From the NCBI RefSeq assembly GCF_056712565.1, contig NZ_CM160072.1: a stretch of 64,000 bases of DNA; one strand, written 5' to 3'. Both the position numbers and the translations under genes were made by a program. Of this stretch, positions 40,396 through 42,850 are shown piece after piece. Position 1 is the first letter of the stretch, and each line of letters begins with the position of its first letter. The notes beneath the pieces are model-generated. The model worked only from the letters and a program-made list of their open reading frames with translations, made no database searches and had not been told where the DNA came from.

Positions 40396-40593
40396 TTACT
40401 TCTCCGCAGCCAATTGTCCGCGCAACGCCATTAAAAGGTACCCCAGGCGATTCTTGCCCTGACCATTACCGCCATCTCCCCAGTAAGCATCATTTTGCGT
40501 ATGCTCAACCAGTTTTGCGGACGCGGTTGCCCGCAAGAGTGTACGCAGTTCTGCATGTTGTTCGAATTTAGCGCGAAGCGCTTTACGCATCAT
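40396..40593 (-). pseudogene. ybiA: 3' remnant of N-glycosidase YbiA (DUF1768) gene; 5' half missing
   Basis: Only the C-terminal ~65 codons (MRKALRAKFEQHAELRTLL...NDAYWGDGGNGQGKNRLGYLLMALRGQLAAEK) look like the YbiA family; the rest of the 101-aa ORF runs into the dinG promoter; the 304-bp gap cannot hold a ~160-aa gene. Confidence 0.65.
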
Positions 40594-40665
40594 CCTGCTG
40601 GTTATTGCGAGCCGCTTTCCCGAAACAGAAAAACCATTACCCCTGAAAACCGAAAAATGCCACAA

Positions 40666-40685
40666 TATTGGCTGTTTATACAGTA
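40666..40685 (+). promoter_or_regulatory. LexA (SOS) box of dinG promoter
   Basis: tattggctgtttatacagta, non-canonical SOS box just upstream of dinG start. Confidence 0.75.
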
Positions 40686-40699
40686 TTTCAGGTTTTCTC

Positions 40700-42850
40700 A
40701 TGGCATTAACCGCCGCGCTTAAAGCGCAAATTGCCGCCTGGTATAAGGCGCTTCAGGAACAGATCCCCGACTTTATTCCCCGTGCGCCGCAGCGGCAGAT
40801 GATTGCGGACGTCGCCAAAACGCTGGCCGGAGAAGAAGGGCGGCATCTGGCGATTGAAGCCCCTACCGGCGTTGGGAAAACGCTCTCCTATTTGATCCCC
40901 GGCATCGCCATTGCCCGCGAAGAGCAAAAAACGCTGGTGGTAAGTACCGCCAACGTGGCATTGCAGGATCAGATCTACAGCAAAGATTTACCGCTGCTGA
41001 AAAAGATCATTCCCGATCTTAAATTCACTGCCGCTTTTGGGCGTGGGCGCTACGTTTGCCCGCGTAATCTGACAGCGCTCGCCAGCACTGAGCCCACGCA
41101 ACAGGATCTGCTGGCGTTTCTTGACGATGAACTGACGCCGAACAATCAGGAAGAGCAAAAACGTTGTGCGAAGCTGAAGGGCGATCTCGACACTTATAAA
41201 TGGGATGGTCTGCGCGATCATACTGATATCGCTATAGATGATGATCTCTGGCGTCGTTTGAGTACCGACAAGGCCAGCTGCCTCAACCGCAACTGTTATT
41301 ACTATCGCGAATGCCCGTTTTTTGTCGCTCGTCGGGAAATTCAGGAAGCGGAAGTGGTGGTGGCAAACCATGCGCTGGTGATGGCGGCGATGGAAAGCGA
41401 AGCGGTATTGCCTGACCCGAAAAATTTACTGCTGGTGCTGGACGAAGGTCATCACCTGCCGGATGTGGCGCGGGATGCGCTGGAGATGAGCGCCGAAATC
41501 ACCGCGCCGTGGTATCGGCTACAGCTGGACTTGTTCACGAAACTGGTCGCTACCTGCATGGAGCAGTTTCGCCCGAAGACCATCCCGCCGCTGGCGATCC
41601 CTGAACGTTTGAATGCGCATTGTGAAGAGTTGTATGAGCTTATCGCCTCGTTAAACAACATTCTCAATCTCTACATGCCTGCCGGGCAGGAGGCAGAGCA
41701 CCGTTTTGCGATGGGCGAACTGCCAGATGAAGTGCTGGAGATCTGCCAGCGGCTGGCAAAACTCACCGAGATGCTGCGTGGCCTGGCGGAGTTATTTCTT
41801 AACGATTTAAGTGAGAAAACCGGCAGCCATGACATTGTACGTCTGCATCGGTTGATTTTGCAGATGAACCGCGCATTGGGGATGTTCGAGGCGCAAAGCA
41901 AACTCTGGCGGCTGGCGTCTCTGGCGCAATCTTCCGGTGCGCCGGTGACCAAATGGGCGACGCGGGAAGAGCGCGAAGGGCAGCTACACCTTTGGTTTCA
42001 CTGCGTGGGAATACGTGTCAGCGATCAGCTGGAAAGGCTGCTGTGGCGCAGTATTCCGCACATTATTGTTACCTCCGCAACCTTGCGTTCGCTGAACAGT
42101 TTTTCGCGTTTGCAGGAGATGAGTGGGCTGAAAGAGAAAGCGGGCGACCGTTTTGTGGCACTGGATTCCCCTTTTAACCACTGTGAACAGGGCAAAATTG
42201 TTATTCCCCGGATGCGCGTTGAGCCTTCCATCGACAACGAAGAGCAGCACATTGCCGAAATGGCGGCCTTTTTCCGTGAACAGGTGGAGAGCAAAAAACA
42301 TCTCGGTATGTTGGTGCTGTTTGCCAGCGGGCGTGCGATGCAGCGCTTTCTCGACTATGTGACGGATTTACGCCTGATGTTGCTGGTGCAGGGCGATCAG
42401 CCACGTTATCGCTTAGTTGAACTGCACCGCAAACGCGTTGCCAACGGTGAGCGTAGCGTGCTGGTGGGCTTACAGTCCTTTGCCGAAGGTCTTGATCTGA
42501 AAGGCGATCTGCTCAGCCAGGTGCATATCCACAAGATCGCTTTTCCGCCCATCGACAGCCCGGTGGTGATCACCGAAGGTGAATGGCTGAAAAGCCTCAA
42601 CCGCTATCCGTTTGAGGTGCAAAGCCTGCCGAGCGCTTCGTTTAACCTGATTCAGCAGGTTGGGCGACTGATTCGAAGCCACGGTTGCTGGGGGGAAGTG
42701 GTTATCTACGACAAACGCTTGCTGACAAAAAATTATGGCAAGCGACTACTGGATGCATTACCGGTATTTCCGATAGAGCAACCGGAAGTCCCTGAAGGTA
42801 TAGTTAAAAAGAAAGAAAAAACGAAATCCCCACGCCGTCGGCGGCGTTAA
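40700..42850 (+). CDS. dinG: ATP-dependent DNA helicase DinG
   Basis: 716-aa ORF, Walker A APTGVGKT, DEGH box, FeS-cluster cysteines. Confidence 0.95.
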   Translation: MALTAALKAQIAAWYKALQEQIPDFIPRAPQRQMIADVAKTLAGEEGRHLAIEAPTGVGKTLSYLIPGIAIAREEQKTLVVSTANVALQDQIYSKDLPLLKKIIPDLKFTAAFGRGRYVCPRNLTALASTEPTQQDLLAFLDDELTPNNQEEQKRCAKLKGDLDTYKWDGLRDHTDIAIDDDLWRRLSTDKASCLNRNCYYYRECPFFVARREIQEAEVVVANHALVMAAMESEAVLPDPKNLLLVLDEGHHLPDVARDALEMSAEITAPWYRLQLDLFTKLVATCMEQFRPKTIPPLAIPERLNAHCEELYELIASLNNILNLYMPAGQEAEHRFAMGELPDEVLEICQRLAKLTEMLRGLAELFLNDLSEKTGSHDIVRLHRLILQMNRALGMFEAQSKLWRLASLAQSSGAPVTKWATREEREGQLHLWFHCVGIRVSDQLERLLWRSIPHIIVTSATLRSLNSFSRLQEMSGLKEKAGDRFVALDSPFNHCEQGKIVIPRMRVEPSIDNEEQHIAEMAAFFREQVESKKHLGMLVLFASGRAMQRFLDYVTDLRLMLLVQGDQPRYRLVELHRKRVANGERSVLVGLQSFAEGLDLKGDLLSQVHIHKIAFPPIDSPVVITEGEWLKSLNRYPFEVQSLPSASFNLIQQVGRLIRSHGCWGEVVIYDKRLLTKNYGKRLLDALPVFPIEQPEVPEGIVKKKEKTKSPRRRRR

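Follow-up and report, generated by a model that had tools for sequence, protein, structure and literature searches.

A 298-bp repeat-flanked deletion has very probably left ybiA as a non-functional remnant in many Escherichia coli genomes and in Escherichia albertii

Introduction

What remains of ybiA between rhlE and dinG in the Escherichia coli species type strain, and can the remainder still encode a functional protein? The question arises from a 64,000-nt stretch of contig NZ_CM160072.1 (NCBI RefSeq assembly GCF_056712565.1), which we refer to as the window and to which all positions relate. Here, an open reading frame (ORF) of 101 codons lies at 40396..40701 (-) between rhlE and dinG, and its ATG (40699-40701, minus strand) overlaps the dinG ATG at 40700. 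Window positions 40100-40800 are 100% identical to the chromosome of E. coli ATCC 11775 (= DSM 30083, the type strain).

The ybiA product is a DNA de-ADP-ribosylase, while dinG is the gene of an SOS helicase. Full-length E. coli YbiA hydrolyses guanine-ADP-ribose in vitro; swarming and riboflavin-intermediate N-glycosidase activity are further functions with which the protein has been associated (PMC11125620).

A first-pass annotation of the window, made from the letters alone, had read the ORF as a 3' remnant of ybiA. Our results support this: positions 40396-40593 (-) are very probably a non-functional ybiA remnant that was left by one 298-bp repeat-flanked deletion, that is, an old allele which has since drifted. 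The deletion is not private to the window strain, since we find it in 1119 E. coli genomes as well as in Escherichia albertii.

Results

Extent of the ybiA remnant

The Pfam NADAR profile (PF08719) matches the ORF above the gathering score (63.6 bits vs. a cutoff of 35.1, E = 3.5e-17). The match is restricted to ORF residues 33-97 and spans only profile positions 88-162 of 163, i.e., it falls short of the full-domain coverage used as a criterion for the NADAR family. Intact K-12 YbiA (160 aa) covers profile positions 2-162. The only solved homologue, E. coli YbiA 2B3W, likewise aligns to the ORF over chain residues 92-160 only. Residues 1-32 show no family similarity in either the Pfam or the PDB comparison and are an antisense reading of the dinG upstream region including its LexA box. 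This is in accordance with the first-pass annotation, according to which only the last ~65 codons resemble YbiA and the upstream part runs without similarity through the LexA box to the dinG start. Its figure of 304 bp for the available space is also what we obtain between the remnant stop codon and the dinG ATG.

The remnant proper (40396..40593, -) thus consists of a hybrid codon 96, codons 97-160 and the stop codon; based on Pfam, PDB and PGAP it is a pseudogene without native start or ribosome-binding site. The remaining 36 codons of the ORF (40594..40701, -) form a spurious N-terminal extension that runs antisense through the dinG control region. The 101-aa ORF exists because no stop codon happens to interrupt the remnant frame when read on through the dinG promoter block. 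Consequently, the earlier statement that the remnant abuts the dinG promoter is only partly right: the ORF extension crosses the promoter, but the ybiA remnant itself ends 71 bp upstream of the LexA box.

Compared with K-12 YbiA (b0798; PDB 2B3W), the remnant is orthologous and syntenic, i.e., located between rhlE and dinG on the same strand. It shows ~85% protein identity to residues 96-160 and keeps the VEH...NDAYWGDGG motif, but its start codon and ribosome-binding site are missing along with residues 1-95. The RefSeq annotation of ATCC 11775 lists rhlE (+), a pseudogene at the equivalent of window 40396-40593 (-) and dinG (+), and the PGAP note on the pseudogene reads 'NADAR domain-containing protein; incomplete; missing N-terminus'. 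The ATCC 25922 remnant carries the same pseudogene note, while the same 198 nt are entered as an ordinary CDS in the STEC299 record.

The deletion and its junction

Aligning the window with the intact alleles of J53 (a K-12 derivative), EcPF15 and PS_131_S11 yields one clean 298-bp gap, apart from which the lengths agree between the ybiA stop codon and dinG. The first-pass annotation had estimated a loss of ~300 bp or more from a ybiA of ~160 codons; with a reference ybiA of 160 aa and the missing segment evident in the alignment, the loss amounts to exactly 298 bp. Of the 298 bp (1993-2290 in the K-12 locus L002), 286 nt are coding sequence, i.e., codons 1-95 plus one base of codon 96, and the remaining 12 nt belong to the leader. 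Given that the start codon and ~12 nt of leader are deleted, the ribosome-binding site must be gone as well.

The two gap ends read ...TTTTCGCATCA|CCTGTTC... and ...AAACCGCATTA|TGTTGGTGG... in intact alleles, and the window reads ...TTTACGCATCA|TCCTGCTGG... across the junction. The gap is flanked by a 7-nt imperfect direct repeat (5 nt perfect) in K-12, PS_131_S11, EcPF15 and the divergent intact allele L019, which stems from 'E. coli' SCPM-O-B-8794, a separate species in the species-level collection. The left copy, CGCATCA, lies inside codons 96-98 and the right copy, CGCATTA, lies ~6-12 nt upstream of the start codon. A check for micro-homology, as suggested along with the first-pass annotation, is thus positive, i.e., CGCAT[C/T]A is found at both ends in intact alleles. 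At the window junction (40588..40595), which we located by a breakpoint scan and by comparing carriers with intact alleles including L019, CGCATCA remains as a single hybrid repeat copy.

The junction sequence of carriers has the form CGCATCATCCTG[G/C]TGGTTATT. Carriers from E. albertii read TCCTGGTGG with G at the position equivalent to 40598, where E. coli carriers have C; since the E. albertii carriers have G, the C is taken as a later change in the E. coli carriers. The CC at 40594-95 is accounted for by L019, whose right flank CGCATTATCCGGGTGG has the same bases.

A single hybrid copy left behind by a deletion between short direct repeats is classically seen after slippage or illegitimate recombination. 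Our locus resembles other bacterial deletions of this kind in that the repeat is found at both ends in the intact gene and one copy is left. It differs in that the repeat is imperfect and the junction has since been substituted (C/G at 40598), because of which we only infer a slippage-type event, i.e., replication slippage or RecA-independent illegitimate recombination between short direct repeats. Through this single deletion between CGCATCA and CGCATTA, ybiA, the gene of a NADAR-family N-glycosidase/guanine de-ADP-ribosylase, lost its start codon, codons 1-95 and the ~12 nt of leader that hold the ribosome-binding site; the remnant has drifted since then.

Active-site residues

In NADAR proteins, residues from both halves contribute to the active site (PMC11543638). 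The N-terminal part provides the E43 equivalent and most of the ADP-ribose/phosphate ligands (K50, K75, R79, Y84, D86, W89, R93), and the C-terminal part provides the family-defining glutamate of the last beta-strand (E125) plus D130/W133, i.e., the D..W motif, in P. nicotianae numbering (PMC11543638). In the window allele, the segment encoding residues 1-95 with the equivalents of E43, K50, K75, R79, Y84, D86, W89 and R93 is deleted. The last-strand glutamate and the D..W motif are kept in the remnant as VEHTQNDAYWG (sequence KLVEHTQNDAYWGDGG). The first-pass annotation had spoken of the loss of the catalytic N-terminal half; this is correct for the E43 equivalent and most ADP-ribose-binding residues but not for the family glutamate and the D..W motif. 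Since about 60% of a single compact domain is gone, it is very unlikely that the remnant would yield a folded active enzyme, and carriers have probably lost YbiA function.

A 'sigma70-linked' NADAR has been described in EPEC and O157 strains (PMC11125620). We looked for a second NADAR as compensation in the chromosomal rpsU-dnaG-rpoD region of FDAARGOS_1292 (a deletion carrier) and of O157:H7 and found none in that region; the 'sigma70-linked' paralog must lie outside of it.

Sequence decay

We also compared substitution rates of the remnant with those of intact ybiA and of the flanking genes. Remnant vs. intact alleles gives a nonsynonymous rate (dN) of 0.065-0.08 and a synonymous rate (dS) of 0.19-0.25, i.e., a ratio ω of about 0.33. 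Intact ybiA alleles compared with each other show dN values of 0.011-0.014, dS values of 0.09-0.12 and ω of 0.09-0.15, and the flanking genes (cecR, rhlE, dinG, ybiB, hcxB) show dN values of 0.0006-0.008 and dS values of 0.05-0.18. The dN of the remnant is thus 5-100 times that of intact ybiA and the neighbouring genes. On the protein level, this corresponds to 8-10 amino-acid changes per 65 residues between the remnant and intact YbiA compared to 2 between intact alleles. Carriers also differ among each other by nonsynonymous variants (L/R at 40532, R/C in STEC299, L/P in 536, E/K and A/P in E. albertii).

The ~10% nucleotide divergence of the remnant is a local peak that combines mostly ordinary silent divergence with a large excess of amino-acid changes. 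This excess points to relaxed constraint on the remnant. A foreign origin as the sole cause of the ~10% divergence is rejected, since the remnant dS of 0.19-0.25 is near the 0.11-0.18 of its neighbours and the excess lies in dN; for the latter reason, decay would explain most of the divergence. A protein search with the remnant for its closest intact relative returned short fragments only and no full-length proteins. The most divergent intact class in the E. coli genomes (H129) is the same allele as in PS_131_S11.

The dinG control region

To the right of the junction, a single position (40621) distinguishes the window from K-12 over the 103 bp between 40598 and the dinG ATG. The 20-nt LexA (SOS) box TATTGGCTGTTTATACAGTA at 40666..40685 (+), an exact match starting at 40666, is identical to that of K-12 and located 71 bp downstream of the junction. 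We take this predicted LexA site to be the published dinG operator. A 27-nt probe containing the box was identical in 14/14 rhlE-dinG loci, to which a scan of genome contigs then added four more. The first-pass observation that the SOS box and the dinG start codon are preserved is thus confirmed, and both dinG and its predicted LexA operator are untouched by the deletion. For this reason, the likely effect in carriers would be a loss of YbiA activity only.

The whole dinG upstream block (promoter region; 40598..40699, +) is near-invariant across Escherichia species, with 0-3% divergence among the sampled lineages compared to 5-10% in the surrounding DNA. The comparison covers E. coli, E. albertii, Escherichia sp. 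MOD1-EC7003 and two divergent 'E. coli' species representatives. This conservation of ~100 bp exceeds what the LexA box alone needs. An Rfam search gave no RNA family at the rhlE-dinG locus including this block, which is uninformative.

Alleles at the rhlE-dinG slot in E. coli

To assess the distribution, 5426 complete E. coli genomes were scanned, using an 80-bp probe for the deletion junction. The junction is found in 1119/5426 genomes (~21%) with one copy each, while the deleted 298-bp segment is present, i.e., ybiA is not shortened this way, in 3429/5426. Two further classes carry foreign genes in place of both the REP spacer and ybiA, namely the type III effector gene espX2 (542/5426) and a cassette of a PaaA2-like antitoxin and a ParE/RelE toxin (325/5426). 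Taken together, 5415 of the 5426 genomes fall into one of the four classes. Among the deletion carriers are APEC O1, ATCC 25922 and the type strain. The exact 101-aa product is deposited in GenBank for UTI89 and APEC O1, as is a version with one substitution for 536. UTI89, APEC O1, 536, ATCC 25922 and the type strain are presumably all of phylogroup B2.

The espX2 allele (O157:H7 and relatives) and the ParE-cassette allele resemble the window allele in the loss of functional ybiA and in nearly the same end point. In contrast to them, the window allele is a simple internal deletion without inserted DNA, whereas the foreign genes come with the removal of the REP spacer and the ybiA 3' end as well. 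All three non-intact alleles have their right ends in a stretch of about 10 bp that lies 95-105 bp upstream of the dinG ATG, at the left edge of the conserved dinG upstream block. The simplest reading of this shared boundary is that changes reaching further right would harm dinG expression and are removed by selection; a recombination hot spot is possible, too. At the O157 junction we observe a duplicated TTGCGAG (slot examined at window 40164-40605 and in loci L004, 2052-3000, and L005, 193-3000).

Another form is found in Escherichia sp. MOD1-EC7003 (L021), which keeps the ybiA start, the first 12 codons and the last ~57 codons, while codons 13 to ~104 are replaced by a copy of the REP element pair (bacterial interspersed mosaic element, BIME) that normally lies downstream of ybiA. 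The layout suggests a REP-associated rearrangement, and the lesion is a fourth independent ybiA loss. E. coli EC21Z-014 (L006, 1415-2395) has an intact ybiA that is separated from rhlE by an inserted IS621 (IS110-like), located in the REP spacer or adjacent to it.

The same allele in Escherichia albertii

A protein-cluster look-up of the 101-aa product returned members labelled E. albertii. In two E. albertii assemblies, the ORF is flanked as in the window, with the gene order cecR-rhlE-remnant-dinG-ybiB. A DNA scan with the LexA-box probe (one genome per species) also led to the type strain of E. albertii, NBRC 107761, which shows the same junction. A few cluster members on contigs of ~0.4-0.7 kb are labelled Staphylococcus aureus or Enterobacter, which is probably contamination.

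Within the REP spacer and remnant, E. albertii differs from the window by 2.1-3.4%, compared to 7-10% for intact E. coli (K-12, PS_131_S11). The flanks of this tract show higher E. albertii-window divergence, i.e., 6.3-7.0% in the rhlE body, 7.1-7.9% in the rhlE tail, 5.5% in the first 1.1 kb of dinG (type strain) and 7.4-7.7% in ybiB. Since a tract of ~0.5 kb is shared amid flanks at species-level divergence, the dead allele has crossed the species boundary by homologous recombination.

Regarding its source, the E. coli copy and the E. albertii copy both show derived sites of their own, with 9 fixed differences in 552 bp, and neither is nested in the other. The deletion haplotype branches outside K-12 and PS_131_S11 and has, at several sites, states in common with other Escherichia lineages. 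We lean weakly towards an origin outside E. coli proper.

Further exchange is visible nearby. The 5' 1.1 kb of dinG (40700-41800) in E. albertii L016 and L017 is 1.2% from the window and 5.4% from their own type strain, which is a second exchange, from E. coli to E. albertii, that ends near the same junction. In parts of the ybhF/ybhG region (35396-37299), the divergence of L017 from the window is likewise low at 0-0.5%.

Other features of the region

The left neighbour rhlE (38802..40163, +; 453 aa) is supported by the ORF list and the RefSeq annotation of the identical type-strain record. Its Arg/Gly-rich C-terminal tail (39701-40163) is a distinct haplotype in the window strain, which differs by 7-8% from K-12, PS_131_S11 and E. 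albertii and by 4.3% from the ParE-cassette strain; RhlE is also one codon shorter (453 vs. 454 aa). Just 3' of the rhlE stop, a GC-rich hairpin ATGCCGGGCTATGCCCGGCAT can be read from the sequence (40170..40190, +) and is likely the rhlE terminator stem; a simple terminator scan made no call for it. The hairpin is kept in the ParE-cassette allele and absent from the espX2 allele. Its loop (40179-40181) is TAT in all E. coli and ATA in all three E. albertii, i.e., a three-base inversion that forms a fixed difference inside an otherwise shared tract. The rhlE-ybiA spacer further contains an inverted REP pair (BIME; 40215..40313, inverted repeats I1/I2), and the REP spacer of the window is also found in intact-ybiA alleles.

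On the right, dinG (40700..42850, +; 716 aa) is intact according to the ORF list, the annotation and a dN/dS of 0.01 vs. K-12. Elsewhere in the window, we observe matches to the Moco riboswitch (103 bits, 24841-24985, +) and to the naRNA4/REP-derived sRNA family (72.7 bits, 45217-45287, -), both expected for the region.

Discussion

A few observations weigh against a dead remnant of the described origin. Between the junction and each of the available intact alleles there are 2-4 base differences, and we infer the exact breakpoint and the micro-homology length. The remnant frame is open in every carrier examined, in E. coli as well as in E. albertii. Its ω is below 1, and over 65 codons complete neutrality is not demonstrable. 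Furthermore, the junction created an ATGATG after AGGA, i.e., a poorly spaced yet conceivable start, and a consensus scan for promoters and terminators at the locus made zero calls, dinG's own promoter included, and is thus uninformative about transcription of the remnant. The open frame and the ω of ~0.33 are what one would expect if the shortened ORF, either 65 aa from the new ATGATG or 101 aa, were a functional mini-protein kept by selection, e.g., a C-terminal piece of NADAR that has acquired a new role in the SOS neighbourhood. The retained family glutamate and D..W motif as well as the normal CDS entry in one RefSeq record fit, too. We nevertheless consider such a protein highly improbable, given the missing ~60% of the NADAR domain with its E43 equivalent and ADP/phosphate-binding residues, the deleted native start and ribosome-binding site and the strongly raised dN. 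For the 101-aa form, the first 36 codons are antisense to a promoter block conserved for dinG, such that their conservation is a by-product. The open frame itself is uninformative: at ~16 substitutions in 65 codons, a frame would by a rough estimate escape a stop codon by chance in about half of all cases. The bare length difference alone would also be explained if the short form were ancestral and the K-12 form had gained ~300 bp, or if the gap were an assembly artefact. Both can be regarded as refuted with near certainty, since the remnant matches just the C-terminal part of a single-domain family, the divergent lineage L019 has a full-length ybiA and 1119 complete genomes, each assembled independently, show an identical junction.

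While a non-functional remnant is thus very probable, its spread may have had different reasons. Loss of YbiA could be advantageous in some Escherichia niches, such that the null allele was spread by selection, including across species, rather than by drift. Four independent inactivations at one locus (the 298-bp deletion, espX2, the PaaA2-ParE cassette and the REP/BIME lesion of MOD1-EC7003) as well as the presence of the deletion allele on a short cross-species tract speak in favour of this. Recurrent loss is, however, equally expected for a dispensable gene, inter-species tracts unlinked to ybiA exist nearby (the dinG 5' end in L016/L017; 35.4-37.3 kb in L017), and 63% of the genomes keep an intact and constrained ybiA (ω ~0.09). 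Selective spread therefore seems unlikely to us. The more specific idea that the ybiA-null deletion allele is favoured and not merely tolerated, having been carried between E. albertii and E. coli on the ~0.5-kb tract while ybiA was lost at least three more times at the slot, is slightly less likely still. If true, it would imply that YbiA repeatedly comes at a selective cost in some host-associated Escherichia lineages.

Full-text literature searches for ybiA with 'pseudogene' or with 'Escherichia albertii' returned nothing describing the deletion allele. The pseudogene as such is already explicit in RefSeq annotation, and the type of event, i.e., a micro-homology deletion followed by decay, is entirely familiar. 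We thus see ordinary gene decay and no new mechanism, while the exact junction, the four-allele slot and the sharing between species are of modest interest for Escherichia population genetics.

For the biology of E. coli, the distribution implies that ~37% of complete genomes probably have no functional YbiA, including the type strain, UTI89, APEC O1, 536 and ATCC 25922. Due to this absence, the K-12 ybiA phenotypes (swarming, riboflavin-intermediate clean-up, guanine de-ADP-ribosylation) should not be assumed for such strains. GenBank/UniProt list the 101-aa and 65-aa products of UTI89, APEC O1, 536 and other strains under the names 'Swarming motility protein YbiA' or 'N-glycosidase YbiA'; such functional names on fragments mislead automated annotation. 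Finally, recombination between E. albertii and E. coli is cleanly marked by the shared junction, and the rhlE-dinG slot illustrates in a small space how a gene is lost repeatedly up to the edge of a conserved promoter block.

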